Below, one piece after another: positions 20,797 through 64,000 of a stretch of 64,000 nucleotides of DNA. The notes beneath the pieces were generated by a model, which saw only the letters and a program-made list of their open reading frames with translations, was not told the DNA's origin and did not search any database. Position 1 is the stretch's first letter. Every line of letters begins with the position of its first letter. The stretch lies in the NCBI GenBank assembly GCA_030141605.1, contig JAQGDQ010000203.1, positions 332,565 to 396,564 of the forward strand, in the 5' to 3' direction. The stretch comes from Tubiluchus corallicola. Lineage: Eukaryota; Animalia; Priapulida. Position numbers and translations under genes: made by a program.

Positions 20797-21656
20797 ACAT
20801 CTTTTTTGCTATCTCCGCTTAGGCAAACAACTACGAGTTAGTTGCAGTTCCATTCTCGCTTGTATATTAAAACTGTGTAACGCTGCATATAACCTTCACT
20901 TATTAAGGTGTATAACCTAATAAGGTGAGTTACTATATATATATGCTGTCTATGTGTAGAGACACGTATATATTTGTCAGTCTATTAATGCGCCAAAATT
21001 AATGGCTAAAAAGTAGATAAACACTGTGTGGAACGTTCGTGCATTATTGATTATAAATCTATTTAATGAACAAATATTATAAGTCTTTTGCTAGTCTATA
21101 TAACACCAATGCAGGTATATTTTTGTATTACTGCCTGTTTACCTTTGTGTTAAAATTTTTTAATCACCAAAATCAGACGAATAAGTTTACGATTGTTCGG
21201 CTTTGCTAGAGATCTGTTTCTTACTGAGCGCATTCTAGTTTTATTACAGAAATCAAGTACATTAAAATAGCATACATGCCATTTTTCCTGTGTCATTTTT
21301 ACCGCGCACCTGCTAACACGTGTTGAACTTCACCTGCGTGTACCATCATCGTCATCATCGGGCTTCTTATCTTGTAATTCTTAACGGGAAATTTTTTTGT
21401 CTTGATAAACAGAGCCTTGCCAGCTTTCTGAAGGAGATTAATGTAAACCTAATCAAAATAAACTAAGAATTCTAGTTTTGTAGACCGGAATTCATATTTT
21501 CACCCTTCTAATAACCTTCTTACGTTAAGTAGCTACTAGCTTTGTTTGGAGCTAAATTTGTATAGAAAATAAAAATGTAAATTTTAGATTCTTTTGAAGA
21601 AAAATTATTTTAACAGCAATTTACTCTGGGAAAACTTAGAAATTTGGAATGGAAGT

Positions 21657-26630: not shown

Positions 26631-28034
26631 ATGGCAGCCGAGAAAAGGAGAGCAGCACAGGAGTGCCTTTTATTGGAGGAGGATGACAGCAGGGCAGATC
26701 CATCAAAATCCTCGCAGCAGTCAGACACAAACAGACAGAGCAGCGATCTGAACAAGAATGGCGTCATCTGTTCAGATCATCCTAACACACGCATAATGAT
26801 CAACATCAGTGGTTTAAGGTTCGAGACCCGGGTAAAGACGTTACGTCGGTACCCTGATTCTTTGTTGGGTAATCCAGCCAAACGTTGCAAGTACTTCGAC
26901 ACTTTGAGGAACGAGTATTATTTTGACCGACATCGACCTAGCTTTGATGCAATTCTCCATTATTACCAGAGTAAAGGGCGACTGCAGCGACCTGCCAATG
27001 TTCCTATGGACGTATTCATCAGTGAAATCAAATTTTTCCAATTAGGCGAGAAGGTGCTTGAGCAATACTTGGAAGGAGAAGGCATCGTGAAGGAGAAACC
27101 AAGAGCTTTACCAAAAAACCCCACTTTGAGGACAATCTGGAAATTGTTTGAGCACCCAGATGCCGGATGGCCATCACGTATTGTGGCAGTTATATCAATA
27201 TCAGTCATAGTGTTATCTGTGATCACATTCTGTGTGGAAACGTTACCAGAATTTTCTCAAAATAAAACTGTTTTGTTTCAAAATGCCACAAGAGATGAGA
27301 TTGGGGCCTTTCTTTTTAGCGATCCTTTCTTTGTCATTGAGACATTGTGTGTGTGCTGGTTTACATTTGAGTTAATCATGCGTTTTGTGTCGTCGCCAAA
27401 TAAATTTAAGTTCTGGAAAAGTTTTATGAATATTATAGATTTGACTGCCATCGTGCCATACTTCATAGGTCTATCAGTGACATACATCAACAAGTCTGGA
27501 GATATGGGATCGATGAGCTTAGCTGTACTCAGGGTTCTTCGTCTAGTCAGGGTGTTTAGAATATTTAAACTGTCACGACATTACAAAGGTTTGCAAGTCA
27601 TTGGTCAAACTTTACGAGCAAGTATTCCAGAATTAGGATTACTTACTTTCTTTCTCATCATTGGCATGATTCTTTTTGCTAGTGCTGTCTACTTTGCCGA
27701 ACTCGACAAAAGTGACTCTCACTTCACTAGTATTCCAGCCGCATTTTGGTGGGTGGTTGTCACCATGACCACAGTTGGATATGGTGACATGTTTCCACAA
27801 ACAGGTTGGGGAAAGTTGGTGGGATCTCTCTGTGTGATATCCGGTGTTCTGACAATAGCACTTCCTGTGCCTATCATTGTGTCAAATTTTGATTATTATT
27901 ACCACCGTCATTGTGACACTGAAGCTTATACGACAGAAGAGGAGGATCCTCAAGCTGATGGCGATATAGGTACCAGAATAGATTTGGAAGCAGCTGGTAG
28001 CAAAAATGATGATTACGATGAAACACATTGCTGA
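26631..28034 (+). CDS. KCNA: Voltage-gated potassium channel, Shaker/Kv1 (KCNA) subfamily alpha subunit, single coding exon
   Basis: T1 domain [10 protein letters not shown]...[32 protein letters not shown]; S4 [18 protein letters not shown]; pore TMTTVGYGD; S6 [10 protein letters not shown]. The start is taken as ATG 26631 (AGCATGG). An in-frame ATG at 26538 or an upstream exon is also possible. The specific paralogue cannot be assigned. Confidence 0.97.
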
Positions 28035-38400: not shown

Positions 38401-39252
38401 ATAAATAATCTCTGGATTGTGGCACGTCAAGCTTCGCTAGCGGTTTCTTTACTTGCGTAAACTACATGAAAGTGCGCACATCATTGTCTATTGTTGAGCA
38501 GATGAAACCACAAAATACTATAATTTGTTAAAATCAAACCTGTTGTAGTTTGCCATTTTTTATGAAAGATGAAGTGTAGCCAACCTAAAAGGAGAGAAAG
38601 TAGGTAAATTAGTAAAATTATGGTATTGTGTGCTTTCATTCGCATACATTACCCATCAACTATAGTGAATGATGAAAGCAATTTACCTGTAGCATAAGAC
38701 TTCACCGCCACACTCAACAAAAATTAGAACAACGTCCATACTAACTGAACACAACAGAGTAGCGCCACCTATCAATACTGGCCTTCATTCACTTTGTTAA
38801 ACGAATGCGATTCGCAATGTCTACACAATTATATTACTAGAATTTAATAACCAAGATTTAATAGACAAAATAAGCAACAGAGGAAATGAATTAAAGCAAC
38901 AAGGTTTCTCTCAAAAGCAAGTTTTGAACAACGTGTACGTTGATGACACATCACATCATGCCAGTGATTCCACGTCAGCAGCGCCGCGTCACGTTTTTGC
39001 AGCCATGTGTAAATTTTTACAGACATGTACGAATCTTGATAAGGCAGTTGTAAAGCTGCATGAGTGCATTTCTATTTACGTACTTACGCACCTCATATCT
39101 ATTTATACATTATTATATGAGGTGCATCTAGTTACGTAGGCCTATTCTATTAGTCAAAATAATGCTTAGATGCGCAGTCAAGATTCGTGTTTTCTAAGCT
39201 GAAAGAGTTAGACGGAATTTGCCAACTTTATAAGGCCTTGCTAATTTTTGTA

Positions 39253-40590
39253 ATGGCCTGTTCATCGTCCAAAGACTACTCCATAGATATGGCGGCAATA
39301 TGGAAAAGAGCAAACTGGTCTGAAAGATTGTCCAGCCTGTTTGATAGTGGTACGTTGCAAGACGTTGAGTTCATCGTAGGTGAAAAACGCATCACAATAA
39401 GAGCAAATAAACTCGTCTTGTCGTTGGTAAGTCGAGTATTTTTTACAATGTTTTATGGATCACTACCAGAGGTCACTAACACACCTATTGAAGTTCCAGA
39501 TATCAGAGTGAAAGTGTTCAACATTTTTCTCGAATTTGTTTATACCGACAGGATTCCCATAACTGATTGTAGTGTGTTATGTCATGATGGGGTTCCTTCA
39601 GCATTTGAACTAATTTATGTGGCCAAGAAATATGACGTGAGAAGGTTGGAAAGCATTGCGGCTAAGTACATTATGTCACATCTGACAGTTGATAATGTGT
39701 GTGATGTCATTAGAGAAAACTATTTGTACGAAAACCGGGACGTGCACGAACAGTGCTATCAACTAATTGATTTGTACCCGCTGGATGTGTTTACGTCTAA
39801 GAGTTTCACAAAGCTAGCCTACACAGAATTGCTGGAAATAGTTAAGAAAATAAACAACAAAATTTCTGAATTATCAATTTATGAATCAGTTGTTGGATGG
39901 GCGCGGGCTCAATGCGCCCGGAAAACACTGGCGACTTCTACTGGTAACATTCGCAACGAAATGAGCGACGTACTGTACGAAATTCGTTTTCCCTTGATGG
40001 ATCTGCAAGAGTTTGCGGATGGACCCGCTCAGTCCGGCATATTAACCGATAGTGAAGTAGCTAACATTTTCTTAAACAGGCATGGATCATTAAACAAAGT
40101 ACAGCTGATTTTTCCCGGAGAAAATAGGTGCGATTTTATGCTAAACTCACAAGACTTTAGGGGTAGGCCTACGCTTGTCTTTAGAGTGCCAGTACAGCAC
40201 ATTGATGGACTTCAACGCGGAAAAGGAAAGTGGTTTTCCTCTAAACCATGTTATCCTATTGCGGGAGTGTCCTGGGCGCTAGAACTTAGGAAGTGTGGCC
40301 CACTTACCTGTAATTCTGAGACTGAAAAAGGCCAAAGTTGTTGTTTTCATTTCCGGTTTGAACCCCATTGTGCAGCAGAAGAACGAAGAACTAGAACATT
40401 GTTCAGGGAATCCAGGATAGTGCTGGTGAATCTTGATCCACAAAAAAGCATCGAAAAAAAGCTGGCTGAGGACAAAACACCAGCTATTTGGTGGGAAGAC
40501 AACTTCATTTCGTCACGTGACTTGCTGACATTTGAAAGTGGCTTTATTATTGCTGACGTGATTACAGTTTACTTTATACCATGTGTTTAA
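39253..40590 (+). CDS. BTB/POZ-BACK protein with a C-terminal MATH/TRAF-like domain (putative Cullin-3 substrate adaptor), intronless
   Basis: BTB: DVEFIVGE...ANKLVLSLVSRVFFTMFYG...IEVPDI...FLEFVYTD...AKKYDV. BACK ends IRFPLMDLQEFADGPAQSGILTDSEVANIFL (BTBD1/2/3/6-like). C-terminus FSSKPCY.IAGVSWALELR...FIS..DLL...SGFIIADVITV is MATH-like. First ATG 39253; alternative 39289. Confidence 0.9.
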   Translation: MACSSSKDYSIDMAAIWKRANWSERLSSLFDSGTLQDVEFIVGEKRITIRANKLVLSLVSRVFFTMFYGSLPEVTNTPIEVPDIRVKVFNIFLEFVYTDRIPITDCSVLCHDGVPSAFELIYVAKKYDVRRLESIAAKYIMSHLTVDNVCDVIRENYLYENRDVHEQCYQLIDLYPLDVFTSKSFTKLAYTELLEIVKKINNKISELSIYESVVGWARAQCARKTLATSTGNIRNEMSDVLYEIRFPLMDLQEFADGPAQSGILTDSEVANIFLNRHGSLNKVQLIFPGENRCDFMLNSQDFRGRPTLVFRVPVQHIDGLQRGKGKWFSSKPCYPIAGVSWALELRKCGPLTCNSETEKGQSCCFHFRFEPHCAAEERRTRTLFRESRIVLVNLDPQKSIEKKLAEDKTPAIWWEDNFISSRDLLTFESGFIIADVITVYFIPCV

Positions 40591-41055
40591 CTAAGACACT
40601 TCAAGCAAATAATCATGCTAGTGTAATTATAAGAATCCACGCGAAAATAATATTGTAATTTGCATAAAATGAGACAAACTAATAAAGATTAACCGCATGG
40701 CAGCCATTCTAGTGCATGAGACAAAATTTTCATGTTGCGTATTTGTGCAAAATCGTAATGGCTAAAATCTGAAAATCTGAATGTAATGTTTTATTTTTAT
40801 AATGCAACTCAGTTGTGCTGTTTTATAGCCTATTAACTGTTACCGCTGCTGCTGCTGTTGTTGTTACTAAGACTGATAGAATTTTTTTATAACGACGAAT
40901 AAAAACGAACAGTCTTAAATTTTATTATTCTTATTAATACTTAGTCATTCTTTATCTAATTTAAAATTTCAACTTGCTGATTTATGTAGAAATGTAGCGA
41001 GATTAGATTAATTAAATTATGCTCTCAAAACAGAAAGTCCAATGGAAGTGGAAGT

Positions 41056-41156
41056 GTTTTATTAACTAACACTGATTGATTATCTCTGTAAAGTTTTTAT
41101 CGGTGATTATCAATGTATTTTAATGGCAAATAAAGATTATTATATATACATATATA
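41056..41156 (+). mobile_element. ~100-bp 5'-truncated copy (3' tail) of the LINE at 60370-64000
   Basis: ttttattaactaacactgattgattatctctgtaaagtttttatcggtgattatcaatgtattttaatggcaaataaagattattatatata is nearly identical to the reverse complement of 60375-60474. Confidence 0.9.
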
Positions 41157-41810: not shown

Positions 41811-42995
41811 ATGATACCAAGGAAAGTTCATGTCAGAGATATTGATGCAGCATTACACACTGGTTTAAAAAATCAGCAATCAGTTGATAAAGTCAAGAGA
41901 AATGCAAAAAGGTGGTTGCATCCGAAGGTATACACCATCCAGGAAATAGAAAATAAAAGTACAGTGAAACCTGGCGATAACAACTACTATCGTGATTGTT
42001 CAGTAACAAGCAATGAGTTGTATTACAAATTGCACCCACTTTTGAATTCTGCAAGGATTTTCGGTCTCTTTCACCTTCCGAAACATCGGCCCGAAAATGC
42101 TTCTCTGCTTGCCTCTTTTTCTGGAGCCACCTGGTGGTCGCTCGTGACACTGCTGTGTGTTACAGCAATATGTGCAAAGTCATTGAAATCTGACACTGGC
42201 AAAGCTGACCTGACGACAGCCACCGGCATTGCACAGTCGTTTGTCTTGTTCTTGGAGGTAATTCTGGTTTTGGTTAGATGGTTCACATTTGTTGCCGGAT
42301 TCAAAATGGCGAATGTTTTCTCAGAATTTGAGAAACAACTTCCTCGTTATATCAATCACAGTAAAGTTACTAACATCAAATCACTTACACAAACTCTCAG
42401 AGAAAATCGGCTTTCATGGGGATTAACCTTGATGGGCTGGGCGGTGATTATAAGTACTTTTTTGTATGCAACAATAAACAAGGTTTTCGAGAACCTGAAT
42501 TCAACTATAACTCTACGTTTGGTATTTATAAATACGGTTTATGTTATCTATGACAAGTTTCAGTTGGCAACTGTCATTTTTGCTGCATACATCGTCGTCT
42601 CGTTGTGCAAAATATTAAATTCTAAATTTAGTTTTCAACACGATGGCCTACGATTGGATACTGACGAAAAGGTGAATAATTTCTTGGACAAGCAAAGAGG
42701 ATTCATTCTTCTAATTGAAGTTGTGGATGAGACAATATCACCAATGCTTTTGATGATTTGTCTCGGAAGTTTCATGGTGATCGTTGTTCAAATTTATCTT
42801 TACAGCCATAATTATCACTCCGGTATTCCACCAGGTTATTTACAGGAATTTGTCCACGTGTTTTCTACTCTACAAAGTTTCTCATTCCTACTGATTCTTA
42901 TCAGCTGTACAGCTCTGCACGAAAAAGTCATGCAAGTTGAAAGAATTTTACATTCTATAAAACGAAGTCAATTGGGAGAAATGGCCAGATATGAG
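41811..42995 (+). CDS. GR/GRL 7TM chemoreceptor, variable exon V1 (N-terminus to TM6)
   Basis: Multi-TM ORF with L.PLL..A..FGLFH at TM1; paralogous to four neighbours. Ends MARYE followed by donor GAG|gtaaat (phase 0). First ATG 41811; the ORF track starts at GTG 41784. Confidence 0.85.
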
Positions 42996-44128
42996 GTAAA
43001 TACATGAAATAATTCTCAGACCTGGCACTCTTCATATGCTATGTAGATTTTTTTTATTTCAGGAAATATAAAGAATAAAAGCAAGCATGTAGTGATGGAA
43101 AGTTAAACAGCTTCTAAGAAAATAAAACAAATTAGAACTGTTTGGAAATTTGCAGCAAGAGTTAGTTGTACAAGTGTACAAGCCACTAGAGCTCTAACAA
43201 TAAGAAAACAAAGGTAACACCTTGCCAAAACACACTCGATGGCTTGAAACACTTTATACGTGAGTGAAGTGCAACAGATAAAAGAAAAATATATATTTTA
43301 CATTAACTGTTGTTCAAAACAATTCATGTGCAGGTATTATTGCCTAAAAGGATGATGTTCTTCTATTCTTAGCCCTTAGCAGTTCCAGTGTTGGAAATTT
43401 TTTTCAAGTTTCTTTCCAGGTCTTTGCATCCGAAAACTGATTACACGTTCAAACTAATAATTAGTTGTCTTTAATTAAGTTACTGCACACTTGATAATTA
43501 ATAATAAAACCATTGCCTCCATACTCAACCAAGATCAGTCTCTGAATCATGTGAGATGCAATTTAAAAACTTTAAGATAGAGTTAATTGCTTACAACAGA
43601 TGTAGAGACGATTGCTGCTTTAATCTGGTACTTTAAGTTAAAAAAGTAAGCGTCTTATATCCAACGCTTATCACATCTTGTTGATTCCTAATATTCCAAT
43701 GCCACCTTCCTGGTGGGTCAATAACTAGATATAGTTGCTGTGCTGCAAATATTAGCAGTGTGACCTGCTAATTTTATTCTATCTGTGAATTATTCCATCC
43801 ATTACATCACTGAGGCACTTATTGCAGTATGCTATTATTTAACAATAAACGCCAACAATAAATGTGTGCAAGGCTGTTATGCATTTGTCTAGCAAATGGT
43901 AAATAGATTGAAATTAAAAGCATTTGTGTTTACACTACTTTGTTCTGCACAACATTAGCAAGCAACAGAAAAACCACCTTATTTATAGCAAAAACAATTC
44001 AGGACTTTTAGATCACGTTCAGAATTATTGCAATCGAGAAGTACTCCTCGTATGCTAGTTCAAGAAAAGGAAATAAATATTACTCAAAGTTAAACAAGAC
44101 AGGTGTTTTCGATTTTTCTACAAATGAT

Positions 44129-45241
44129 ATGAAGAAATCTAAAGACGTTTCAAAGCAAGTTGTGAGTACCATAAGTTGCATAGCTTGGAAATCATGTGAT
44201 GACGATCCTTCAATGCCCATCAACCGTGAAATGGAAGAAAAGAATTTCACAGAAATTTTGATGATGAATGATATGTATAAAAGCTTAAAACCTTTGCTGC
44301 AATCTGCCAAAGTTTTTGGATTATTTCACGTACCAAATCAATACCAGGAGAGTTTTCGCATGCTGTCATATTTTTCTAGAAGCACCACTTGGTCGTTCAT
44401 TGTTTTTCTTGGTGTAGTGTCAATTTGCATAAAGTCTTTGGTTGCAGATGTACAACATGCTAACCTTACTACAGCCAGTGGTATTGCACAATCATTCGTC
44501 TTACTGTTGGAAGTAATTCTCACACTTGTGAGATTTTTTGCATTCATTGTTGGGTTCAAGATGAGAAAGGTGTTCATCGAGTTTGACAAGATGGCATGCA
44601 AGAGGAAATCATATTTTGCTAAATCTGATTCAACTACAACCAAAATTTCTGTAACTTTTATATCCTATTTCCTGGCAGTAATTGGATGGGTTACAATGAT
44701 TGTGACATTTGTTTATGCAGCAATTCATAAAGTAAAAGTTCATATCGGCAACGACAATAATACTATGGGCAACATAATTATATCAGCAGCATATCTCATT
44801 TACGACAAATTTCAACTCGCAGTGGTAATATTTCCTGCCTATATCACTACTTGTCTGTGTATCACCTTGATACAAAAATTTAAAAATGCAAAACTTGGTG
44901 AAACCACAGACCAGAATCTTCACGTCTTCTTAGAAAAGCAAACCAAATTCATTCATTTAATCAAAGTTATTGATGAGACAATGTCACCAATGCTTTTGAT
45001 GATTTGTTTCGGAAGCTTCATAGTGGTCGTTGTTCAAATTTATCTTTACAGCCATAATTATCACTGTGACATTCCACCAGGTTATCTACAGGAATTTGTC
45101 CACGTGTTTTCTACTCTGCAAAGTTTTTCATTCCTACTGATTCTTATCAGCTGCACAGCACTTCACGAAAAAGTCATGCAAGCTGAAAAAATTTTACATT
45201 CTATAAAGCGAAGTCAATTGGGAGAAATGGCCAGATATGAG
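44129..45241 (+). CDS. GR/GRL 7TM chemoreceptor, variable exon V2
   Basis: 371 codons from the ATG to MARYE, donor GAG|gtaatt (phase 0). Motifs LKPLLQSAKVFGLFH, GIAQSFV, YDKFQL and QIYLYSHNYH. Confidence 0.85.
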
Positions 45242-46893
45242 GTAATTACATTAAATAGTATCTTATGCTTATAAGGGACAGTTGTAGATGACGGAATGCT
45301 CAAAAAATCAAATCTCAAGTTCTGTTTTTGCTTGCTAATGGCATTCTAACAAAATATTATAAAGCACCTTTGCAAATACAGTTGCAATTATAAGACCATA
45401 ATAAAATAATTAACTGATCAAATGAATTAATAATTTACGTGTGAATGTTAAAATGTTACAAACTACAACAAAATTGCAAATGCAATGTTGCAAAGGCTAT
45501 AAAGGCTACAAAGGTAGTTTTACAGTCTATTGTTCTGCTGGATTCTGCATATAAACAGATTGAATCACTTGAGCATGTATGTATAGGCTAACAAATTTAA
45601 ATGTAAGCTTCATCCAAGGCTTGAAGGCCTGAAAGGTGGCTGCACATGACAGTATATCAGTTTATCCCCAACAATTATAGTTCTTTGTATTTTAGCCAGT
45701 GCAGTTCATTACACAAGTTGGGGTAATCCAGGTATGAAACTGTCTACACCATTGAGACTTTGCCAGTGGTGTAAATCGTGCCATCAGCTGCAAGTGAAAA
45801 CAGAGGCAATAAGCACATTTACCCGTGACATCACGTAGTGTCACCTTTAAACGCACAAGATTCTTGTACAGATTTTGTAACTTAAAATTAACATTTATTA
45901 TCACGTAAAGTAAAATTTTGCATTTTAGCACACTATATTTCTTTTATAAATTACTCCTAGAGTCACGTCTGAGGACTTCACGTATTTGAAATTGAAAAAT
46001 TACAAAATCGTGTTTATCTTATTTGCAGTTAACTGTGCAAGGTCTGTGAAGACCTTTTTATTGCTAATTTGAAAGAATATGCTTTCGCTCATTGAATCAT
46101 AAATGTTGACAATGCGTTTGTTTGCCGCTCCTCATATTTTTGCTATGGACGTCTCCGAATGCCTAATGTTTGCTTATAAACTCTGCTTTTAACAGAGGCT
46201 TGTTATCTCACTAGTTTTTACCAAAAATTGTTTCCTGTCAACTACAGTTTTACTTGCTTCAAGAAGGTCGACCTATCACTACCAAGTTATTAATAAAAAA
46301 AATTTCTCGCCCTGTTTTTAAACCTGTTTTTTACTGTGGGAATGCCTCAGCATATTACCATAATTCAACGCTGTCAGTTCTTTAGAACTTCTGTCTTTCA
46401 GATTTTATGACATTTCTGACTTAAAAAATGACGAAGAACATGGACATTCAATCGCACACACACATTGTGCATTGCGCCAAAAAAAATTAAAGGGGCAAAT
46501 GCTTTTTTTAATGATTTATTGGCTCTTTGTGTTGCCAACTGATCTATGTTCATCCAGCAGAGGATTAGTGTTGCCTAGTTCAGCTTTAACTCATCCACCA
46601 TAGAAGCCGAGAATAATCGATTAATACGTTCACAAGACTTTGAGTTTTTTCTTAGTTATAGTTTTAGCTGGTAATGAAATACTATTTTTTGAGACATGTC
46701 GAGGACAATCGTGTGAAAGTAACTTCTACAAAGCTCACAACTATTTAAGTATAGTCTTTTTTAATCTGAGTTCAGGGACTATTAGCGATCACCCTGACGA
46801 TTATAAAATTAGTCATGGTAATATGAACACATAATTAATTAGTTAATTAAATTTCGATACCAAACTTGCAAGACAGGCGTGTAAAATATTAGA

Positions 46894-47540: not shown

Positions 47541-48677
47541 ATGGGCACCAGAATACCTTCTGCTCCAACAAATACTTTTAAGAACTCAGTAATAAAAAGT
47601 CCAACGAAATGGACACCAATTCAGACAATGGTTGGTGATGGAAAGCTTGCAAATAACGTGATTTCAGAGTCTGGCGACTTCATATTGTTGGACACAGTGA
47701 GTTTTTATAAAAGCTTGCATCCACTTCTAACGTTAGCTAAAGTATTTGGCCTATTTCACATTCCAAGTAGAAAAAACACGCAAAGGAGATTCCAAGCTCT
47801 TCTATGTGGCAGTACGACGTGGTCATTAGCAATGGCTGTTGGAGTCACAATAGTGTGTACCTACGACTTAATTACGGACTTGAGAGCTGCAGACTTGATT
47901 ACTCCAGCTGGTATAGCACAATCATTTGTACTTTTTCTCGAGGTTGTGAATACTATCATTAGATGGTTTGCTTTTGTTTCAGCTTTTAAAGTGACCAAGT
48001 TGTTTTCCAAGTTTGAGTGTACTACAGAAAACAGTGCCGAACGGACAAAACTACTTAGGCTCAAATTGTTTAAACGAGAGCTAAAAGACAGCACTGTCAG
48101 CTGGACATTAGCCTTTGTAGGATGGATTGCGATGAGCTGCACATTTTTAAACGCTTTAGTAGAGAAAGTGAAATATATCTACGAAGATACATCCATTAGG
48201 AGTTGCGTTTTAAATATCGTATTTTTATTCTACGATAAATTACAACTTTCCACGATCATGTTTCCAGCCTTTATTATAGTTGGTGTTTGTTGCACTCTGC
48301 TCTCCTACTTTGAAACTCAAAAGGAACCCCCGAAAGTCAATACCGATAAAAATGTGTTAAGTTATCTGAAGGGACAGTCAGCAATTATAGAAGTTATTGA
48401 AGTCATCGATGCAGCTATATCACCCTCGCTTTTCATGATTTGTTTCGTGAGTTTCATGGTAACTGGATTGCAAGTATATCTCTACAGTCACAACTATCAC
48501 TTTGGTGTACCAAAAGGTTTTATGCAAGAGTTTATATTCGTCTATTCTACTCTGCAAACTGTCTCGTTCTTATTAATTCTGATCGGCTGCACAGCTGTGC
48601 ATGAAAAGATTTTGCAAGCGGAAAGAGCGTTACGCAAAGTTGAACTTTATCAACTGGGTGACGTGGCACGCTATGAG
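47541..48677 (+). CDS. GR/GRL 7TM chemoreceptor, variable exon V3
   Basis: Ends VARYE, donor GAG|gtataa (phase 0). The start is set at ATG 47541 by length comparison with paralogues; the ORF is open back to 47325. Confidence 0.85.
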
Positions 48678-48745: not shown

Positions 48746-49056
<311 letters not shown>

Positions 49057-50165
49057 AATTCTTTATTGCTATAAAATTTAGTAGTTTACTACCCATTCAA
49101 AAATTGACAGCATAACCAGTGTTTCCACTGCTGTGAGTATTAGTGTCAGGATAAAATAAAATTATGAGTAAAAACATGAGTGAAGCTATGATCATTACAT
49201 CGATTGCACAAAAGTCTACATTCATTTGACACGGTTCAGCGAGTACTTAACACAATTTACAATATTTGCAAGTAATAGTTTTGTCTAAGATATTAAAATT
49301 GTGTAAATATGAAATTGCATGAGTGGTTTTGATTTTTTTTGAGTTGGTGACACTACAAGTTGAATGTTGATAATAATAAAAAGGTGTGATTTGATATTTT
49401 GTATTAGGTCTTTTTGATGGCTAGCATGTTTTTAGTTCATTTTTGAATCCTTTTAGCGTCACTGCAGATTTTACATTAAATAGCTGAATACTCTTGCTTT
49501 TGTGTTAGTAACGGAAACAACACAGTAAAATTAAATAAAGCAAAAATAAAACAAAGCAAGAATAAAGCTCAGCGAAACAAAGCATAGACATAAAATATTA
49601 CAGCTTCTGAAACACACTGAGACTTGTAAAATCTGCATGTTACGATCAAAATAGAGTTTTGAAAATAATTTGTGTTGCCACTACTCAATGTTTAACGCCT
49701 TCATGCCGATTTTTATTTAGAATAATAGGTAAACAAGCAGAATGAAGCGAAGTATAAAATACACGACAATGTTTAGAGCGGCAAAATAATGTAAAATGGT
49801 CAGAAAAAAGAAAAAAATGCGACATGAAACAATAGTTATAACGAGGCAGCAGTACAATAATCATTATCGTTTATTAATATTATGACGACCAAATACTTAG
49901 CGCCAGTTTATCGATGAACATCACGTTTGTCAAACTGCTTGCCTTTGAATATTAATAAAATTAGGATGCAAATGCAGCTAAGAATTCAAGTTTATTGCAG
50001 CAAAATGTTTATGTTCACGGGTAAAGTCATTGGGTGAACGTAATTATCCGATGAGATTGAAAATGACGATGATGGTGGTGATAATGATTGTGATTGTTAC
50101 TCTGGTAATGACGAAAATGATAGTGATGGTGATAAATGAGAGCCATAATTGAATTGCTTTTGCAG

Positions 50166-50255
50166 GTACTTATTCATCTCCAACAACTATCATCAAGATC
50201 TATTGGCCTCACAATCTGGAAATTCTACGTCATCAATCGAAACTTTGCTTTTATC
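50166..50255 (+). CDS. GR/GRL shared (constant) exon C1, 90 nt: VLIHLQQLSSRSIGLTIWKFYVINRNFAFI
   Basis: Acceptor ttgcttttgcag|GTA and donor ATC|gtgagt, phase 0 on both sides. The peptide matches the GR pattern of the IL3/TM7a region (F..QL......T..G.F.I.R). Confidence 0.85.
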
Positions 50256-50377
50256 GTGAGTTCAGTTTGTTGCTATTTTGGAAATATAGCTTCGCCCAGT
50301 TTAATTTTTAAAGTGGAGATTAGATTTTTGATCTTTTCACTGATGAACTCAATAAACAGTTTTGTAACGTGAGGCGA

Positions 50378-50456
50378 GTTGAGTAGCGGAGTGGTCATGG
50401 CATGCGTTTGTCAGTGAATGGCTCGTAAGTGCCCGGGTTTGATGCTCCCTGAGGGA
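50378..50456 (+). mobile_element. tRNA-derived SINE head in the intron between the constant exons
   Basis: A-box-like TAGCGGAGTGG and B-box-like GGGTTTGATGC with long (Leu/Ser-type) spacing. Confidence 0.5.
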
Positions 50457-50883
50457 AATTTCATTCGCCATGCTAATTTCTTGTTGCGCATATTATACCC
50501 ATCTTCCGTACATATACATATATATGAATGTGATTAAAACAGCTCTACCAGCTCAGTGGTTCATCTTAATGGCTATTCATGATAACGAGTTTGGCATTGA
50601 TCTCCCCAAAAAACAGTGGACCTATTATTAAGAGCTGGATTTTGGGTTGCAATACATTTGCAATGTATTTTATAAAGATTAAAAATAAAAACGTGCTTTA
50701 CCTAAAGCACCTTCATCACAAAACAAATTCATATTTTGCTTTGAGTTCTTGTTGTCAAATAAACTCTTGAATAAAAGTTACCAAGCTAGTTTGTTACTAT
50801 TGCATGATAAATTTATAACTGTTATAACGTTTATAACTGTTGTTGAGTTGCTTAGTTTAACAATAAATGTTGTTGTTTTGCAG

Positions 50884-51045
50884 ATTGTCAGTGGTATCTG
50901 CACGTTTTTCATCGTGATAGTACAATTTCATCAGACAATTATTGGAAAGCAACAGACAAACGTGACACTCCTTATGGACGCCTTTGCCAATGAAGCTTGT
51001 CATATCTGCAGACGATTTCTCAACAACCTTAGTGATCCTGATTAG
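50884..51045 (+). CDS. GR/GRL shared terminal exon C2 (TM7b and C-terminal tail): IVSGICTFFIVIVQFHQ...LSDPD*
   Basis: Acceptor tgttgttgttttgcag|ATT, phase 0. TFFIVIVQF fits the GR superfamily TM7 signature TYhhhhhQF. Stop TAG at 51043-51045. Confidence 0.87.
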   Translation: MVSGICTFFIVIVQFHQTIIGKQQTNVTLLMDAFANEACHICRRFLNNLSDPD

Positions 51046-52800
51046 AAGCTTCGAGCTTGTCAACTTGCTGCTATAGCTTGACAAAACGCATCTAACTATG
51101 GTGCAAATTCTGCAAATTAAACAATATATGTCACTTTAATATTAACCGAGCAACAAAACGAAGAAAAATGAGATTTTTCTAAGCCCAGGGACAGATTGTA
51201 TATTTTTATCCACTCATATAAGAATGTGTAGGTTTTTTACCTACTCATTTTGCTAATTTGAAATTTGAACCTAATATTCAGACGCATAAGCTTTAGCCAA
51301 ACAAAGACAGCAGAGTTTTATGTTGTGTGTTGTTTTTTATATAAAAATTTATTTCTTTTTTTGAATAATTCAGAAGGACCGAATTTTAGGGTTAAATTAA
51401 AATATCAGTAGGTGGACTACTCTTACCCTGACTGGTATCAAATTGGTATATGGCTAGTGTTTTAAGTAAACTGCATTCTTATTTTTTTTTTATAAAATTC
51501 CATGCATTGCAAGCCAAAATCCAACTTTTAAAAGCAGGTTCATTGTTTTTATGGCGAGAATCACAGCTCAATTCATTACCTGTACTTTTGATAACATTTA
51601 AATTACACTTAATCAAACTACGGTTCTCTTGTTTAAGAATAATCTGAGGATGCGTTCGAAAGCTTTTACATGGAAATTGAGAAACAAGAAGCGAGTTGCT
51701 GTTTTAACTTGCCTATATTCTTGCCTCTACTGAATTGTTATTACCACTTTAGAACTTTAAAAATTTATAGTTTTCAGAATGTTTAGTGTATGTAAAATGA
51801 ATGTATGTATGTATGAATTATTTACGTAAGCCTTCCTTTTACTTATTTGAACTGAATCGAAACTAAAATTTGTAGTGATTTAAAACTTCTTGATTTGATA
51901 GCAAATATCGTATTATGACTATTAGCAGAACGCAGTAGAAATAGCTCGTTTCTATCAGCTCCGGTATCTAAAGTCAAATTAACAATGTTCATATTGTTAG
52001 TGCTACTAATCTTTATTAACACTTATGTTTATTATAATTACATATTTCTTTAGAGAACACGTCTTTGTGCGTTGTGATGTGCACATAACAAATAAAAGTC
52101 CGTTTCTGTATTTGTGGCAGTAGCTGCATTATTGTATTTTGAGTGTGCAGTGGCGATAATGGCATCTCTGTCGAGCAATGCCGAAACGTGCCGATTTATG
52201 ACTAATCAAGTGAATAAGTCTTTAAAATTACGTCTTCATTGGCTTTTAAGCTAACATTAAGCTTTCCAAATCTAAATCACCCATTATTAGAGTCCCTGTA
52301 TATTTAAATATATAGTTGTAAATATATAGTAATTCTATCCATTATTACAGTATGCTGCTATCTTCTGGTGGGAAAAACGCAAAAACAAGACAGGCTAGGG
52401 GATGAAAATAACAGATGACAGAATGAGAATGGCCATTTCGTTTTTGTTGTAAACCGTGACATTTACAAGATTGACATGCTCAAACAAATATGATCACGCA
52501 TAGGCAAATCACATTTATTACATTAAAACGTGCCTGTAATTGTTTGCGATGAATAAACGGTAGCTCGCGTGGATGTCATTGACAATTTAGCTTAATGTTG
52601 GTGTTGGAAATACTTGATTGCTCCTTCTTTCTGGCTAAAGCTGTGAGTTAAACTAAACGTTGTGTCTTCTAATTAATACCGCAGGAACTCATACGACTTA
52701 GACAACTTCATTTGTAGCTACCGAAAAAGTTATCTAGACGTGTTTAGTCATCTTGCTTCGCTAGAAGTGACCTGTTGGTGACACAGTTTTTAAATCCAAA

Positions 52801-53901
52801 ATGAAAGCACATCATAACACATGGACCATCGGACTGACTGGTTCACTTAAAGTCACGAAGGAGCACGTTAAAACACTATCTCCTAGAAAACTCAATACAG
52901 GTTCCCATAATGATTCCAACTGCCAATTTTACCAGAAATTACGTCCACTATTGATTTTTGCCACAATTTTTGGCTTGTTTCACATGCCTAACAGAAAGAC
53001 GCAGAAACGGTTTGGGTTGGTGGTATTGTCCTACAGTACCATGTGGTCTTTGACTATTCAGATTTTCGTCACAGTTCCAACTATATGGTCCCTTATGCGT
53101 GATACCAGTAAAATTGATCTCACAGCAGCAGAAGGAATTGCCCGGTTATTTGTCATGTTTATGGAAGTAACACTCACATGTATAAGATGGTTGGTATTCT
53201 TTGCTGGATTTAAACTGGTAGATGTCTTAGCAGAATGCAGAGAAGTCAGCAAAATTCAATATCCAAATATGCTGGTTACAGTCATCTCTGGGAAACAGAA
53301 GTACTTGGAGAAAGGAATATCATGGATATTTGCCACGTTAGGAGGGATCATAATTGTCTTTTCGATTATTACAGAATCTCACACTTTGTGGAAGCGGTTT
53401 AAAAGCGGAGAAGAAGAAATTTCATTTCTGCCGATTCTGATTATGTATTTGGTTTCTGACAAGCTGCTGTTGGCAACTGTGATGTTTCCTGCTTATATTA
53501 TAACTTGCTTTTCCTACGTGCTAATATCCCATCAAAGATCATTTCAGAAAACAGAAGAAAATCTTTCAGCTGAAGAAGTCATGTTGTTTTTGAAAAGACA
53601 TTCAAAGTACATTCGCGTTGTCAAGGTCATAGACAACGCTATATCTTCTACACTGCTGATGATCTGTCTGGCAAGTTTTATGGTAGTTGTAGTACAAATT
53701 TATCTTTTCAGTCACAATTTCTATGCTAACATTTCCCACGGATATCTGCAACAATATTTGTATGTCTACTCTACCATGCAGTCTGTGTCATTTCTGCTGA
53801 TTCTTGTTAGCTGTACAGCAGTACATGAAAGCGTTATGGAGGCTGAAAATAAGTTACATGCGTTGAACAAAGAGAGCCTGGGGGAGACAGCACGTTATGA
53901 G
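52801..53901 (+). CDS. GR/GRL 7TM chemoreceptor, variable exon V4 (second array)
   Basis: 367 codons from the ATG to TARYE, donor GAG|gtaaat (phase 0). Motifs LRPLLIFATIFGLFH and QIYLFSHNF. No terminal exons found downstream in the window. Confidence 0.85.
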
Positions 53902-55919
53902 GTAAATTTATTGTATTGCATTTGTCTATCAGCAATATTTCACTAATTTCTGTTTTAAATCACTCATGTTTTGTGTGTAGGTTTGTATGTATTTATATAT
54001 TCTCTCCATTATCTATCGTAGTTTTTCGTACTTAGTATTTCTTTGTGTTGTCTTACAAAGAGATGATCTTGCTTACATGATTGCCTCCTGTTCTGAAAGT
54101 AGGGTGGGAGTTTAGCAGCCAAAACCTGAAATTGCTCAAAATATGGATTCCTCCATGGTGACCTTATTTTTGTGTTGGTTTTAGTATTGTTTTTTGTTGA
54201 ATTCTTTTATTCAGATAATAATGCAACACAGCTATCTTGTTGACTTTCATCATTTACACGAAATTTGATGATTATAATCAATTCCAAGCGATAAAGCGGC
54301 TAATGTGGAATTGTACTGTCTAGACATCCTATACCGCAGATCTTCTATTAATTAAATCAAAGCTGATTAAGATTAAATTATTTTTCATTATTGGTCTGCA
54401 GGGTGTAATTAGATTTCACGAAATCTGATCTTGATAAAATCTTTCCGAAATTTTAGTAACTCAGTAAACCGACTCACGTTCTAACTCCTTATTTTAACAG
54501 CTGCAAGAAAACAACAGAAAATAAACACTAGAGGCATTTACCTTTACCAACCCAACTATGAGAAAAATCGCGAATTTCGGATAGTATCTGCTACATAGGC
54601 CCCTGGGTCTATTTGCTCTTAAACCCAAAACATTGAGATCGAATGTTGTACAAGCCAACCGAGGCTATACAACCATAAGTCGTGCTTTAATATGGTGTGC
54701 GGTAAAACCGCACAAGTAAAAATGACACAAGAAAAAAACATGGTAAAAGTGGCACAGGAAAAATGGCACAAATGGAAATCGCACAATTGAAAATGGCATA
54801 TATGTTATTTTGATGCAATTAATTTCTATAAAAAAAACTAGAATGCGCCCAGTAGGAAGCAAATCTCTGCCAAAGGCGAACAATCCTAAACTTATTCGTC
54901 TGATTCCTTTGATTAAAAAAATTTACCCCAAAGATAAACCAAGCAAACATACAAAAATACACCTGTATTGGTATTATATAGACTAGACTCACAAAATATT
55001 TGTTCATTAAACAGATTTATAATCAATAATGCACGAATGTCCCACATACAATTTGAACTAGCCTTCTACACGTATTTTTTCTTCCTTATTGTTTCTTTTT
55101 ATGCATTTTGAATCATGTATTGGTAGTATTGCTGCTGGCACTGCTACCTCTTGTGCTCCAAAAATGTTATAGTCCCAAGTTATTTTTAGTATGCTTTATG
55201 ACTGCCATATAATAATCGTTTTGTTACTTTGTTGTAACACGACAATTAGACTAATACTTTGAGTGACAGATATGAAATTAAATGTGTTGTAGCACAAAGG
55301 GTCAGCAAACAAGAACGTTATCAGCAAATTGGCAAATAACCCGATAGCATGCAGGACAACTTATTGTAACTACAAAGGACAATTATGCTGTGGTGTCTGT
55401 TTGTAGCAGTTGTTTTGAATTGCGATTGTGTTTTGCAACAATATACGATGATGTAAAATAGCCTGTCTCATCAAAAACGCGATAAAGCATTTCTAAAACT
55501 CAATGTAATGAAACAAGAAGTCAAGTTATAATTATTTTGTGCGGACTTCAAGGTTTCCATTGTGATTTGGCCAGTTTAAAAGAAACACCTACCTAATCAG
55601 TCAGAGACGATCATTGGCAAAATTTAGCAATTATTAAAAAGCTTGCTTGCCACTGTCCAGCTTAAGTAAGTTTATGTGTTGACTGTCCTACATTATGTGG
55701 TTCTGTGACACTTGACATTTCTGTTGTTCCATTTAACAAATTGAGCCATAAAAACTGCAGTCTTTTAATCCCGGTCATATTACCAACACCAATTGTATAA
55801 GTACCAAATTTATTGGCAAATAAGCCAATTAAGGAAGCACATAGATTTCTAATATGAACGTGTCTTACTAGTAGCCAAATATAGATCAAGCTCCATTTTG
55901 TCGTCTGAAGATAAGTAAA

Positions 55920-57047
55920 ATGGAGAAGTCTCGTGATGCAAGGTCCGTTGACTTGGACAATAATCCTAAACATCTAAAGCAAGAAGAGGAGATAAACACT
56001 GAGTCACCTCCCACAAGTGGCAATAACTTCAATGTTATTTTTGAAACTGGTTTGTATCAGCAACTAAGGCCACTGTTGACAAGCGCAATGTTTTTTGGTC
56101 TCTTTCATATTCCTAACTGCAGAAAGAAAAATGCACTATTTGGACTTGTATTGTTGTGCTCTCGTAGCACCATTTGGTCATTAATTAATCTGATCTTTGT
56201 CACTTCAACAACTGTGCTCTTGTTTCTGATTGATTATGAGGATATTGAGACAGTGATACTCACAACGCCAACAGGAATTGCAAAAATGTTTGTCATTTTA
56301 ATGCAGGCAACATTATCTTTGATAAGATGGCTGATCTTCTTTGCTGGTCTCAGAATGGCACACATTATGGAAAAATCATATGAGGTTCAAGAAGCAGAAA
56401 AAATCTATTCTTCTCTTATTCCTACAAAAAAGAACAAGAAGAAAAATTTCGAGAAAAGAATGGTATGGAGCCTGACTGTATTTGGATGGATTGTTATTTT
56501 TTACTCGTCTGTCAAGGAAGTTTTTGTTTTCTGTGAGATATTTGTGGAAGATCTGGAAAAGGGAGCCATTTTTGACATTGTGGCGATAATCATACTTTTC
56601 CTGTATGACAAATTTCTGTTGGCAACCGTCATGTTTCCCGCATTTACCATAACGAGTTTATCTTTTATATTAAAGACTAATCAAAATTTGGCACTGAAAA
56701 TGGAAAATCTCTCAGATGAAGAGATTATGTTATTTTTGAAAAGGCAAACGAAGTATGTTCATCTGGTCAAGGCCATAGACAACGTCATATCTCCGACATT
56801 GTTGATGATCTGTCTGGCAAGTTTTATGGTAGTTGTGGTACAAATTTATCTTTTCAGTCACAATTTCTATTCTGGCATTCCCCCAGGTCATCTGCAGCAA
56901 TATTTGTATGTCTACTCTACCATGCAGTCTGTATCATTTCTGATGATTCTGGTTAGCTGTACAGCAGTACATGAAAGCGTTATGGAGGCTGAAACAAAGT
57001 TACATGAGTTGAATAAAGAAAGTCTGGGGGACACAGTACGTTATGAA
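55920..57047 (+). CDS. GR/GRL 7TM chemoreceptor, variable exon V5 (second array)
   Basis: 376 codons from the ATG to TVRYE, donor GAA|gtaagt (phase 0); closest to V4. Confidence 0.85.
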
Positions 57048-57399
57048 GTAAGTTTTTATCATTACCTTGCTGAAGACATTTATAAATGTCCCTCTTGTTT
57101 ACAAGTATGAAGACGATAGTCTAAATGGTAGATTATCTTAAAGAAACGGCCCCAAATGATGGTAATCGTGAACAGAAAGATGTTTTCTTAAAAATGTTTA
57201 TTTATTTTTCACATTATGCGTGCAATCCAACAGTAACAAAACAAAATTCATGCTTGTGAAGCAGCAGTGAGCTAAGGTAATTACGAAAATGTATGAAGAA
57301 ATATCAAGATTAGCAAAGAAAATAAGCAAACAGATTGATTAAACTGTCATATTCCAAATTACTCAAAACAAGCGTTCTAGAGTTATCGAAAGTCAGCAC

Positions 57400-57700: not shown

Positions 57701-58199
57701 CTATCTTCGTGTGACATCTTCAGCTCAGGTACCCTCAGCGAGTACTTCGTGACCGTGTTCAATACTCTCTCTTGGAGGTTTCATTTAGTATACTATTTTA
57801 AGCTGCCTACTTTGCTGGTTGAGGATAGTTCACCTCTGCCAGCTTAGTGACTTATCTCTGAGAGTTAACATTGAAATAAATTAGGCTCTGGTCTCTTACC
57901 ACAAATATAACAACGAATAGGCCCTGATCTATTCGATGTTTATTCGTTTTCCTACAAAGAGAATCATCTATAAAGCAGCTTATCCAAAGATTTTCTGAAC
58001 TTATTACGCGATAGTATGCCAGCTGACCACCCATCGGTGGACAAGTTAAATAAGATACTGTTATTGTTTCGCCTAGCTAAGATGCTTACAATGACAAGCA
58101 AGAGAGAATATGGTCTTACGTATTTACAGAAATATGATGATAAAGGCTTGAAATCTTAAATTACCCAACTATATTTGCCTGTTAGTCTTAATAATGTGC

Positions 58200-58790
58200 A
58201 CTTGTGTTAATAGAGTTTGGCAACTAAAAGTTTAGCTTTATCGACCATCAGAAAGTTTTGAAATTAACATATGGGGCTAGTAATTCAATTACTTTACTCA
58301 TGTAAGGTAATCTTATAGCATTGTAAAATGGACATGTTAATAAATAAAACAACTCATCTCTACTTTCTTAAAACTACTGATTAAAGATTTGTTTCTAGTA
58401 TCAATGGAAAGCTTATTGCATTCATTTATATAAGACAGGAAGAAACTTGATTGAAAGTAGTTAGAATTGCAAGACATTAACGACAAATTTTCACTATTAT
58501 GCAAATTATAATAAGTTCTATCATAAACATGTAGCACAAGTAGAGAAGTAAGGTAACACGGAGAAGCTCCTTTAACTATTTTATAAAATAAAAGCATTTT
58601 ATGAATGTATCTTTTGTGTGACATGTTTTCCCAAGAAAGATCTTTCAGCAATTTCTCACCGTATGTAACAAAAACAGCCCCTGTCACTACTAACGAAGCA
58701 TGGTACTGAATTTGCTCAACAACTAGAACACTTGCTTCTGAACAATATTTTAGCAATCACAGTATTCAAATGAGAGGATGAGGAAAAATA
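58200..58790 (-). mobile_element. CR1-type LINE 3' ORF2 fragment
   Basis: EQIQYHASLVVTGA...EKLLKDLSWE...LFYKIVKG.SP.YL...SSFF...NKL matches typical CR1 C-terminal motifs. Confidence 0.8.
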
Positions 58791-60369: not shown

Positions 60370-63300
60370 ATATATATATATATATATATAATAATCTTTA
60401 TTTGCCATTAAAAACATTGATAATCACTGATAAAAACTTTATAGAGATAATCAATCAGTGTTAGTTAATAAAAACTTACACTGCTGAAGGCAAATGCGTC
60501 AGTGCAATCTAAACTACTGTGCAGTAATGACGAATAAAAGCAAACATATTTACAACTATACACAAAAAAATATAAAAAAAACTATGATTTAATTAATATG
60601 GCCGTGGGTATATGAATTCGGAATTAGTGTGTATGTTGTCGTACTGGTGTGATGGTATTTCATATCTGGTTAATATTAGTGATTTTAATTTTGTTTTAAA
60701 TGCTGATAGGGACTTGATTTGTTTAACCTGTAATGGTAGAGAATTCCAAAGTAAAATTGCTTGTTTGATTACAGAGTTCGTTCCATAGTGGGTATTTGTC
60801 CTAATTTGTTTTAGATTGCTTGTTCTGGAATTAACGATAGGATTTGGAAAAAAGATAAATCTGTTATTCTGGAATGGTTTGCTGATGTTGTTAATATATT
60901 TATATATAAAAAGCAGAGTAAAATATTCTTTGTGTGCTTCAATGATTGGGAATTTTAAAGTTTTTCTCAGGTTAGTTGTTGAAGCTTTGAATTTTTGTCT
61001 ACTTGCCTTGTGTTTGTATGAGTACCCAGCTATCAATCTCAACGCATAGTTTTGAAGGAGATTTAATTTTAAGTAATTTTCTCTTTTGGTTTTTTGAAGT
61101 AGCGTACATCCATATAAGAAGTGTGGTAGAACTAAAGTTTTATATATTAGTGTTTTAGTTTCCTTTGTTAGTTGCCCTTTAACTTGTCGGAGATATGATG
61201 TGCTAGATGCCATTTTTGTGTATATGTTATTAAAGTGATCATCCCATGAAAGATTATTGTCTACTTGTATGCCCAGGAATTTAACATTGTTAGTTTTTTT
61301 TGATTACAGCATTATCTATTGTCAAAGTGGTTGATGATGCATCATTAGTATTTAATGAGGGTGACAGTATCATGAATTCTGTTTTGTCATTATTCATTTT
61401 TAGCTTGTAATGACTAAATGCCATATTTATATTTTTTATATCTTCTTCTAAATAATTTTTTGCAGTTTGGACATTTTCATGGGCTATGTAGATTGTAGTG
61501 TCATCAGCGTATTGCGTTATTTGTGAGTGTTTTAATACACTGGATATGTTGTTTATATATAGGCAAAATAATAACGGACCTAGTAGTGTTCCTTGCGGTA
61601 TACCTCTGTTTAACGTGGCCCAGTCAGAAAAGTTGGTTGTATCTAACTTTACTCGTTGTTGTCTATCTTTGAGATAATTTTGTATCAGTTTTAACGATAT
61701 CGAATCTAATCCGATTTGTTTTAAATTATCGTAAAGTAGTTCGTGATTAATGCTATCGAAAGCTTTACTTAAATCCAAAAATGCTGCTAAAATGTATTGC
61801 TTGTTGTCTAAACTATGTCTCCAATTTTCTGTTGTGTGTATTAGGGCGTCAATGGTTGAATGATGTTTACGGAAGCCAAACTGATGTTTTGATAAAAGTT
61901 CATGTTTATTTACATATGAATTTATCTGATCATAAATTACCCTTTCCCAAACTTTGCCGAAACAATGGATTACGGAAATTGGGCGATAATTCATGGGATC
62001 ACATTTTGGATCTTTTTTATGGATTGGAGTCACATTTGCCATTTTACATACCGTTGGAAATTTGCCTCTCATAATTATCTGATTAGCAATGTAAGTCATA
62101 TGCGGGGCTATTACAGATGCGCTATCTTTTAGAATTTTGATAGGAATATCTGATGGTCCACTCCCTTTGTTGGAACTTAGGTTATTTAATATGTCGTTAA
62201 TTTCTCCTACTGTGACGCTTTTGAATGAGAATACTGTGTTAGACGATTTGTTTTTTAATTTATTAATTATATTATTGCTAATATGAGAAGCCACTCCCTT
62301 AAAATTTCCAAGATTCAGGAATATTGCATTTAACGCGTTGGCAATATCTTTGGGTTTTGTAATAACAGTGTTGTTGATCTTAATTTCGTCAACACGCGTT
62401 AGTTTGTTACGGCATTTATTTATTACATTGTTAATAATTTTCCATTTTTCTTTGGTATTTGTTGCGTTTTTACATTGTTGTTGTATATGTTTATTTTTCA
62501 AGCATTTATTAAGATTATTAAATTGATTTCTCTTTTTTTTATAATTGTTATGATTGTTTTTAGTTTTGTTCTTTTCCCATATATTATACATTCTGTTTTT
62601 CGCTATTCTTAGTTTGCCAAGTTCAGGTGTTGTCCAGGTACTTTCGTTATTGAGTTTGCTTTGTTGTGGGATTTGCTTTACGTTTTTATATGGTGCATGT
62701 ACATTAAGGCAATATTCGACATTATATGTCAGAATATTAACTTGTGTATCTATTTTATCAGTCATATATATGGAGGTCCAGTTCATTTTTGCTAAGTCGA
62801 TTAAGTATGAATGTTTGTTGTATTGGGCGTAGTCTCTCATTAAATGCCAGACTGAATTTTGGTTATTATTATGCTGTGGGGTCATTTATCTACTAATATT
62901 GTGAAATGATGATCTGAATAATCACACGGGAAAGTATCATATGCTACGAAATTATTGTTACTATTCGAAATGAAATGGTCGATTACTGTAGCTGATGTTT
63001 TAGAAATTCGAGTAGGTTTATTGTTGTTAAGTATGTGGACATTATATTGTTTTAAAAGCTCTGTGTATGTTTTGTATGCCAGTGTGTTTGTAGCTAAAAT
63101 ATCAAGGTTGAAATCGCCCATTATAAGAACTTTTTTATTTTCGAAAACACTGCGTTCTAGTTCTTCACTAAAGTATTTGAAAAATGTTTTGTGTTTGAGA
63201 TTGGGTGGTCTATATATGGTTCCTATTACATAGTTCTCAATGCTGCACCAAACAGATTCAATCTTGCCGGTTCTGATGCCTTTCATTTCTTGTGGTCTCA

Positions 63301-64000
63301 GGTGTGAAGGTATATACATTGCAACCCCTCCACCTTTCTTATTTTTACATCTATCTCTTCTTATTAATGTGTGATTAGGTAATTCTATAGTGTTGCTAAG
63401 TATTTGTTTATGTAGCCAAGTTTCTGTTGTGCCTACAATCAGATTTTCGGTGGCGTGAATTGTATCTTTCAGCAGCCAGTGTTTTTTGACGAGACTTTGA
63501 ATATTTATATTTAGAAATTTGATGTTCTTTTTATAAGTAATCATGCATTTTTTTAGCTCATCACTGGTATTATTATTGTTGGTGTTATTATTATTATTAT
63601 TTGGCAAAATGGGTCCAGGGTTAGTTGCGATACCACCAAGTATAAGTAGTAAACGAATTATGGTTAAAATGTAAGCCAGTTCAGAACATGAGTATAGAGT
63701 GCTTTCAAATTTAGATGAAATCTGTAATTTTTCCAATTTTTTTAGAGCTACGTATTTTAGATTGACATGACGCATTTGTCTTATAGCACTGAGGTACACA
63801 ACTTTTAAGATGGATACAAATCTTTTTAAAATAAATTGCATAGAGTGTCTTATTCTATCGCTATTTACAGGAAAAGCAATGAAAAAGTTGTTTAAATTAC
63901 CTTTAGTCATTACATTACAAATTACTGTTACGTAGATCATTTTCAGTTTTAGTATGGATAGTAATGTACGTAGAATAACTAAGACGTAAGCATAGTTACA
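60370..64000 (-). mobile_element. Young CR1/L2-group LINE: APE endonuclease plus reverse transcriptase ORF2, 3' UTR and (TA)n tail; 5' end probably beyond the window
   Basis: APE motifs NINIQSL, TETWL, GGGVAMYI, IYRPP, MGDFN, IDH, SDH. RT motifs NYRPIS, QFGFR, DLSKAFD, GIPQGTLLGPLLF, YADDT, KFLGI. The 3' end is aataaagattat(ta)n at ~60370-60403. Confidence 0.95.
60593..63940 (-). pseudogene. LINE ORF2 (EN-RT) split by two single-base frameshifts (~62885 and ~61295)
   Basis: ORFs 62882-63940, 61290-62885 and 60593-61213 join into one frame if the A3 run at 62885-62887 is A4 and the A8 run at 61294-61301 is A7 (giving ...KKTNNVKFLGIQVDNNLSWDDH...). Confidence 0.88.

Follow-up and report, generated by a model that had tools for sequence, protein, structure and literature searches.

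The 64,000-nt stretch of Tubiluchus corallicola DNA considered here (contig JAQGDQ010000203.1, positions 332,565 to 396,564; hereafter the window) carries five long open frames on its plus strand, V1 to V5, and two short constant exons, C1 and C2, located between V3 and V4. The last two of these frames, V4 and V5, are probably the intact first exons of a second chemoreceptor cassette, spliced to a second tail that would lie outside the window, beyond a long interspersed nuclear element (LINE). This interpretation is favoured by the purifying selection acting on V4 and V5, their conserved donors, their separate clade, a sequence homogenisation restricted to groups of V exons, and the size of the gap that follows V5.

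V4 (52801..53901, +) and V5 (55920..57047, +) are open for 367 and 376 codons, respectively, from their ATG to a phase-0 R-Y-E|GT donor, in agreement with an earlier, sequence-only reading of this DNA. The 3' ends read ARYE|GTAAAT for V4 (donor at 53902) and VRYE|GTAAGT for V5 (donor at 57048), and phase 0 is found at all five V donors as well as at both borders of C1. The long first exons of the upstream cassette are V1 (41811..42995, +), V2 (44129..45241, +), whose start methionine is uncertain, and V3 (47541..48677, +), which has further in-frame methionines at 47325, 47442 and 47517. No extra V exon was detected on either strand of the window, the five domains detected being V1 to V5 themselves. 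C1 (50166-50255, +), a shared exon of 90 nt flanked by AG and GT, covers the S7a region and is comparable to the 90-bp phase-0 exon described for gustatory receptor (GR) genes (PMC13388675); C2 (50884-51045, +), the terminal shared exon, bears the S7b pore motif in the form TFhhhhhQF (motif defined in PMC12635824), followed by a stop. Both constant exons map 5' of V4, as previously claimed, with 1756 nt between the C2 stop and the V4 ATG. As to the order on the DNA, one 4321-nt contig from DNA run X1 spans 49366-53686, i.e., C1, C2, and most of V4, with two differences. V4 is joined to V5 by X1 and X4 contigs that overlap one another and, in the same order, cover most of the distance to 60314. 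The X1 contigs were assembled separately, but may derive from the same sample as the window. One further run, presumed to be RNA, matches the window in 4 short repeat pieces and in no exon, which is uninformative as to expression.

V4 and V5 are predicted, from sequence profiles and a structural model, to encode helices S1-S6 of the GR (GR/7TMIC) channel family, with V4 extending into the start of the last intracellular loop. V2 and V5 match the Pfam family 7tm_7 (34.5 bits, E 1.9e-8, and 28.3 bits, E 1.5e-6, respectively) above the cut-off of 26.6, while V1, V3, and V4 have no Pfam match. The top Atlas matches of V4 (0.96) are GR-family clusters (7tm_7/DUF267/Trehalose_recp). The predicted V4 model is of low confidence (pLDDT 55.8); it aligns with BmGr9 (Z 16.2, root-mean-square deviation 5.4, 293 residues aligned) and Gr43a (Z 16.0), and in a comparison with 48161 chains, ranks 1 to 8 are all insect GRs or odorant receptors (Z 14.2-16.2), with rank 9 at Z 8.0. 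A sequence search of solved structures returned 0 matches. In this family, S7b lines the pore, while S7a and the inner parts of S4-S6 form the anchor (PMC12635824); the S7b motif TYhhhhhQF and 3' introns are stated marks of animal GR-like proteins (GRLs) (PMC7746228), and intron positions common to GRs are also reported elsewhere (PMC5850775). Since C2 bears S7b and the V exons end at S6, V4 and V5 lack exactly S7 and would need a tail to yield a channel. The S7b signature of C2, TF..QF, belongs to the upstream cassette, and an exon bearing this motif for V4 and V5 would lie outside the window.

Comparison of V4 with V5 by codon-model fit, a check called for beforehand, gave nonsynonymous (dN) and synonymous (dS) divergences of 0.35 and 0.96, i.e., an omega of 0.36 (p 5e-9 versus neutrality); in the 3' third, dS falls to 0.32 with an omega of 0.30 (p 6e-4). 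V4 and V5 are thus under purifying selection, and because of this an old orphaning of the two exons is excluded, leaving only a very recent loss of their tail. About 3.9% of point changes in V4 and V5 create a stop, and both frames (2229 nt in all) have less than a 5% chance of staying open beyond 0.035 neutral substitutions per site, a limit that shrinks to 0.010-0.015 when frameshifts are counted. Past the donors, the read-through tails are unrelated (14 and 20 amino acids for V4 and V5, 1-10 for V1-V3), as are the intron flanks, which indicates that selection keeps the donor and not a read-through product.

V4 and V5 form a clade of their own in both halves of the protein, with supports of 100/100 for the 5' part and 98/98 for the 3' part, and V4 shares 36-39% identity with V1-V3 over the whole alignment. 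This corroborates the subgroup that had been recognised from short motifs (YLFSHNF and QQYLYVYSTMQ in V4/V5, as opposed to YLYSHNYH and QEF in V1-V3). The 3' ends are homogenised within V4/V5 and within V1/V2. Between V4 and V5, identical synonymous codons rise from 52/94 to 66/77 in the last ~100 codons, with a break at ~53620/56766 (permutation p 0.002), defining matching tracts at 53620..53909 (+) in V4 and 56766..57055 (+) in V5. The rise is from 38/97 to 77/88 for V1/V2 (p 0.002), over ~100 codons again covering S5-S6 (42663-43011 versus 44909-45257), and is weaker for V1/V3 (p 0.014) and V2/V3 (p 0.08). None of the six cross-group pairs displays 3' homogenisation (p 0.26-0.80). In the V4 model, the homogenised tract corresponds to S5-S6, the helices packing on S7; it includes the donor and stops a few bases past it. 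Such a pattern is likely the signature of regional gene conversion. In fugu protocadherins, variable exons likewise undergo regional gene conversion in their 3' part, and do so within subclusters (PMC1852091). The restriction to groups seen in the present locus is compatible with two cassettes whose V exons are each adjusted to the tail of their own cassette. An X1 contig with V4 bases at V5 positions 56933-56951 was considered as a polymorphic conversion and discarded, as bubble collapse between paralogues explains it.

Downstream of V5, 3323 nt separate the donor from the LINE and 6953 nt from the end of the window, ~3630 of which are LINE; the intron from V1 to C1 is 7170 nt long. Because the gap does not exceed this length, a tail located just past the LINE demands no unusual intron. 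The LINE (60370..64000, -) is recognisable by its endonuclease (E 2e-7) and RVT_1 (E 4e-37) domains, spread over three frames; it presumably sits within the intron after V5 and runs off the window, so the earlier description of the remainder of the window as LINE was accurate.

Searches for a second tail inside the window gave no intact copy. By tblastn, the best non-self matches have E values of 0.13 for C1 and 0.042 for C2, the latter being antisense to C2 itself. An AG-anchored exon scan of the three intervals after V4 reached at most 12 (C1-type) and 23 (C2-type), compared to 152 and 82 for the true C1 and C2, and no tail was found in the V1-V2, V2-V3, and V4-V5 intervals. In the six frames of the window, the TM7b pattern occurs three times: in the true C2 and at two spots beside stop codons. 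The C2-type candidate at 54372 (score 23, reached in 1/60 shuffles), one among six intervals tested, is the pyrimidine tract of an acceptor at 54401 read in frame, has neither T-[YF] nor QF, and was rejected. The previous statement that no C1/C2-like exon follows V4 or V5 hence holds for intact copies, and is qualified by a faint trace, C1-like then TM7b-like in one frame, at 57822..58025 (+). The trace starts 775 nt past V5, amid transposon debris, and is overlapped by another open frame. Its C1-like segment (57825-57872) and TM7b-like motif (57999-58025) have scores reached by 77 and 25 of 1000 shuffles, respectively. It contains in-frame stops, all three of the splice dinucleotides to be expected are missing, its nucleotide identity in register is 34/90 and 19/48, and the second half of C1 is unmatched; it is unspliceable at present. 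As a tail, it would have died long before the last selection on V4 and V5, which would imply that another tail has been used since: C1/C2 in trans or, more likely, a further one downstream.

Several points weigh against a second cassette with a living tail of its own. First, no intact tail for V4 and V5 exists in the 6953 nt up to the window end, and none of the sequencing contigs extends beyond the LINE. Second, the two parts of the trace occur together, in the right order and in one frame, in only 1/1000 shuffles and in 2/38 real chunks (the true tail is the second of these), with a score threshold chosen after the fact; the trace could be due to chance or be a long-dead tail, possibly the second cassette's own. 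Third, when the V exons were compared with protein libraries, no relative emerged (0/7998 candidates, 0 matches, and 0/1 candidate). Lastly, the group-restricted homogenisation may come from proximity or prior divergence rather than from separate tails. Even so, tandem variable-plus-constant cassettes, as proposed in the sequence-only reading, remain the best explanation of the selection, donors, clade, homogenisation, and gap; the downstream constant region that this reading had also placed more than 7 kb away is itself not seen in the window, most likely an effect of the window edge.

Two tandem cassettes, (V1, V2, V3) + C1/C2 followed by (V4, V5, ...) + C1'/C2', would operate as follows. 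If expressed, V4 or V5, one at a time, would be spliced from its phase-0 donor to two further short exons coding for the pore, the V exon bringing S1-S6 (the pocket for the ligand and the larger part of the anchor) and the shared tail bringing S7a and S7b (anchor and pore). Each V exon is assumed, by analogy with insect loci, to have its own promoter; no promoter motif common to the five V exons was found in their upstream regions, where 10/10 pairs are at shuffle level.

Recent orphaning and trans-splicing, which had been put forward as the less likely alternatives, both keep that rank. The former, unlikely but the strongest of the competing explanations, supposes that the second tail was lost or cut off very recently, for instance by the LINE or by a rearrangement, and that V4 and V5 are yet to decay. 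The lack of an intact tail within 6953 nt and the transposon debris and LINE after V5 are in line with this scenario, but the loss would have to fall within the last ~0.01-0.035 substitutions per site, and the trace at 57822-58025 has decayed far beyond what a recent loss would leave. Moreover, a diverged sample, X5, keeps V4 or a close paralogue (a 360-nt contig with 45 differences and no gap); another X5 contig lies on C2, with 13 differences in 200.

A second, distinctly improbable explanation is trans- or back-splicing, in which V4 and V5 transcripts would be joined to the upstream C1/C2 of a separate pre-mRNA, as in mite sDscam. It would account for purifying selection on V4 and V5 with a single spliceable tail in view and possibly a dead one after V5, and variable-to-constant trans-splicing between clusters has a precedent in Tetranychus (PMC9258826). 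However, the sDscam version uses RNA pairing, and sDscam cassettes also have their own constant exons in cis. Here, the intron preceding C1 (49100-50165) shows no more than shuffle-level complementarity to any of the five segments after V4 and V5 (p 0.21-0.95), although short pairings would escape such a comparison. Furthermore, the term 'gustatory receptor' appears in none of the trans-splicing papers among the matches listed, and as the window ends inside the LINE, the absence of a downstream tail is not established. An equally improbable variant combines both ideas: the second tail would be long dead, with the trace at 57822-58025 as its remains, and V4 and V5 would since have been kept by trans- or back-splicing to C1/C2, making this a non-colinear priapulid chemoreceptor. 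No precedent for a chemoreceptor gene of this non-colinear kind, in which V4 and V5 would be spliced back to C1/C2, turned up in the literature search.

There is similarly little room for terminal exons within the window that are private to V4 and V5 or have strongly diverged, or for truncated six-helix subunits made by intron read-through. Exons of 30 amino acids can elude similarity searches, and the region offers a strong acceptor at 54401 and AATAAA signals at 54520 and 57875. Against this stand the TM7b pattern, whose only occurrences besides the true C2 are next to stops, and, for read-through subunits, tails that are unconserved; given the positions of S7b in the pore and S7a in the anchor described in PMC12635824, a product without S7 would form no channel. 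Least probable of all is an assembly error that put V4 and V5 behind C1/C2 or deleted exons, because a single DNA contig covers C1, C2, and most of V4, even though contigs break at repeats after V5 and the window is without single bases at 57483 and 58256 that are present in both X1 and X4, which points to small errors or private indels.

A two-cassette GR arrangement is routine in insects, and the kind of locus proposed here is therefore already known. Tandem first exons joined to shared C-terminal exons are described for Gr39a, Gr23a, and Gr28b in Drosophila (PMC2204066), eight alternatively spliced GR loci with one or two shared exons in Rhyzopertha (PMC8956072), and 26 alternatively spliced GR genes, with Gr60a-m as an example of isoforms, in Blattella (PMC6175461). 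In Dendroctonus, Gr38a-d combine a unique N-terminal exon with two shared exons, exactly the numbers seen here, and Tribolium Gr214 has 30 variants (PMC6720082). The ancestral GR layout consists of a long exon, exons of 69-72 bp and 90 bp, plus a terminal exon that is short, each in phase 0; several 'conserved cores' per array are anticipated, and the naming of isoforms lets long exons be reassigned if a second core was overlooked (PMC13388675). The present locus shares with those of insects the tandem long first exons with one phase-0 end point, the short shared C-terminal exons, the 90-bp penultimate exon, and the S7b motif in a short last exon. It differs in that the host is a priapulid and not an arthropod, that the locus is known here from DNA alone, and that the shared exons number two, with the 69-72-bp exon included in V. 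The sharp 3' homogenisation is a further difference from Gr39a, for which the consulted text of PMC2204066 raises gene conversion once, as a possibility. The accessible parts of PMC4244043 and PMC11912695 hold nothing on the present layout.

The comparison made earlier with the alpha and gamma protocadherin clusters of vertebrates is apt for the tandem variable-plus-constant layout and extends to 3' regional conversion within subclusters. It overstates the novelty of the locus, the direct precedent being the alternatively spliced insect GR locus, and it is an analogy of layout only: the proteins are unrelated, and V1-V5 share no common promoter motif. Tetranychus sDscam-beta also has several variable-plus-constant cassettes per locus; in contrast, inter-cassette trans-splicing guided by RNA pairing is shown there (PMC9258826), and there is no pairing signal here.

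The value of the locus lies in its priapulid host and in the apparent restriction of gene conversion to cassettes. Among the matches listed, a literature search found no report of priapulid GRs; such receptors may be listed in supplements to surveys of GRLs or in reviews behind subscription, which were outside its reach. An insect-style GR array in a priapulid suggests that enlarging the GR repertoire through duplication of long first exons is old or has evolved repeatedly outside arthropods. It also suggests that gene callers miss such receptors, since none of the protein libraries searched contains a relative. Finally, the homogenisation of S5-S6 within but not between cassettes makes it possible to test whether variable exons co-adapt to the S7 tail of their own cassette.

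Several other features were noted along the locus. Just past the V3 donor comes a ~270-nt microsatellite, a compound (AAT)n(AGT)n(AAT)n (48750-49022, +). In the V4-V5 interval, a strong acceptor-like site (54381-54401, +) has a short closed frame after it, perhaps a 5' untranslated exon of V5, and a high-copy interspersed repeat (54742-55046), matched by very many sequencing contigs, has an inverted copy at 21027-21285 (82.8%). The open frame overlapping the trace (57974-58159, +; 61 codons) is rated protein-like by a protein language model (recognition 3079), belongs to no Pfam family, and has an Atlas match of 0.91 to an unnamed cluster. The frame of the LINE breaks at short homopolymer runs (62882 and 61290-61303, -), and the element may be young. 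Two LINE 3' tails with (TA)n ends, 94.5% identical and inverted, flank the receptor cluster (41047-41156, +, and 60375-60482, -); they were discarded as back-splicing arms, the first copy lying upstream of V1, 9 kb from C1. Two further decayed remnants, judged LINE-like by eye from their motifs, lie at 58337-58756 (-), a C-terminal part without a Pfam match, and at 36543-38300 (-), a reverse-transcriptase-like frame.

Upstream of the receptor cluster lies a single-exon Shaker/Kv1 channel gene (26631-28034, +) whose best single-copy matches are proteins of Priapulus caudatus (67% identity over 94%). In a tree of 29 rows, made of the window protein and 28 of 120 listed matches with no other scalidophoran included, it forms a clade (100/100) with two divergent Priapulus paralogues and one unnamed protein. 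The affinity of this one gene likely places the host with priapulids or close relatives. A single-exon BTB-BACK gene (39163-40590, +; Pfam BTB E 2e-14, BACK E 1e-7) lies ~1.2 kb upstream of V1.

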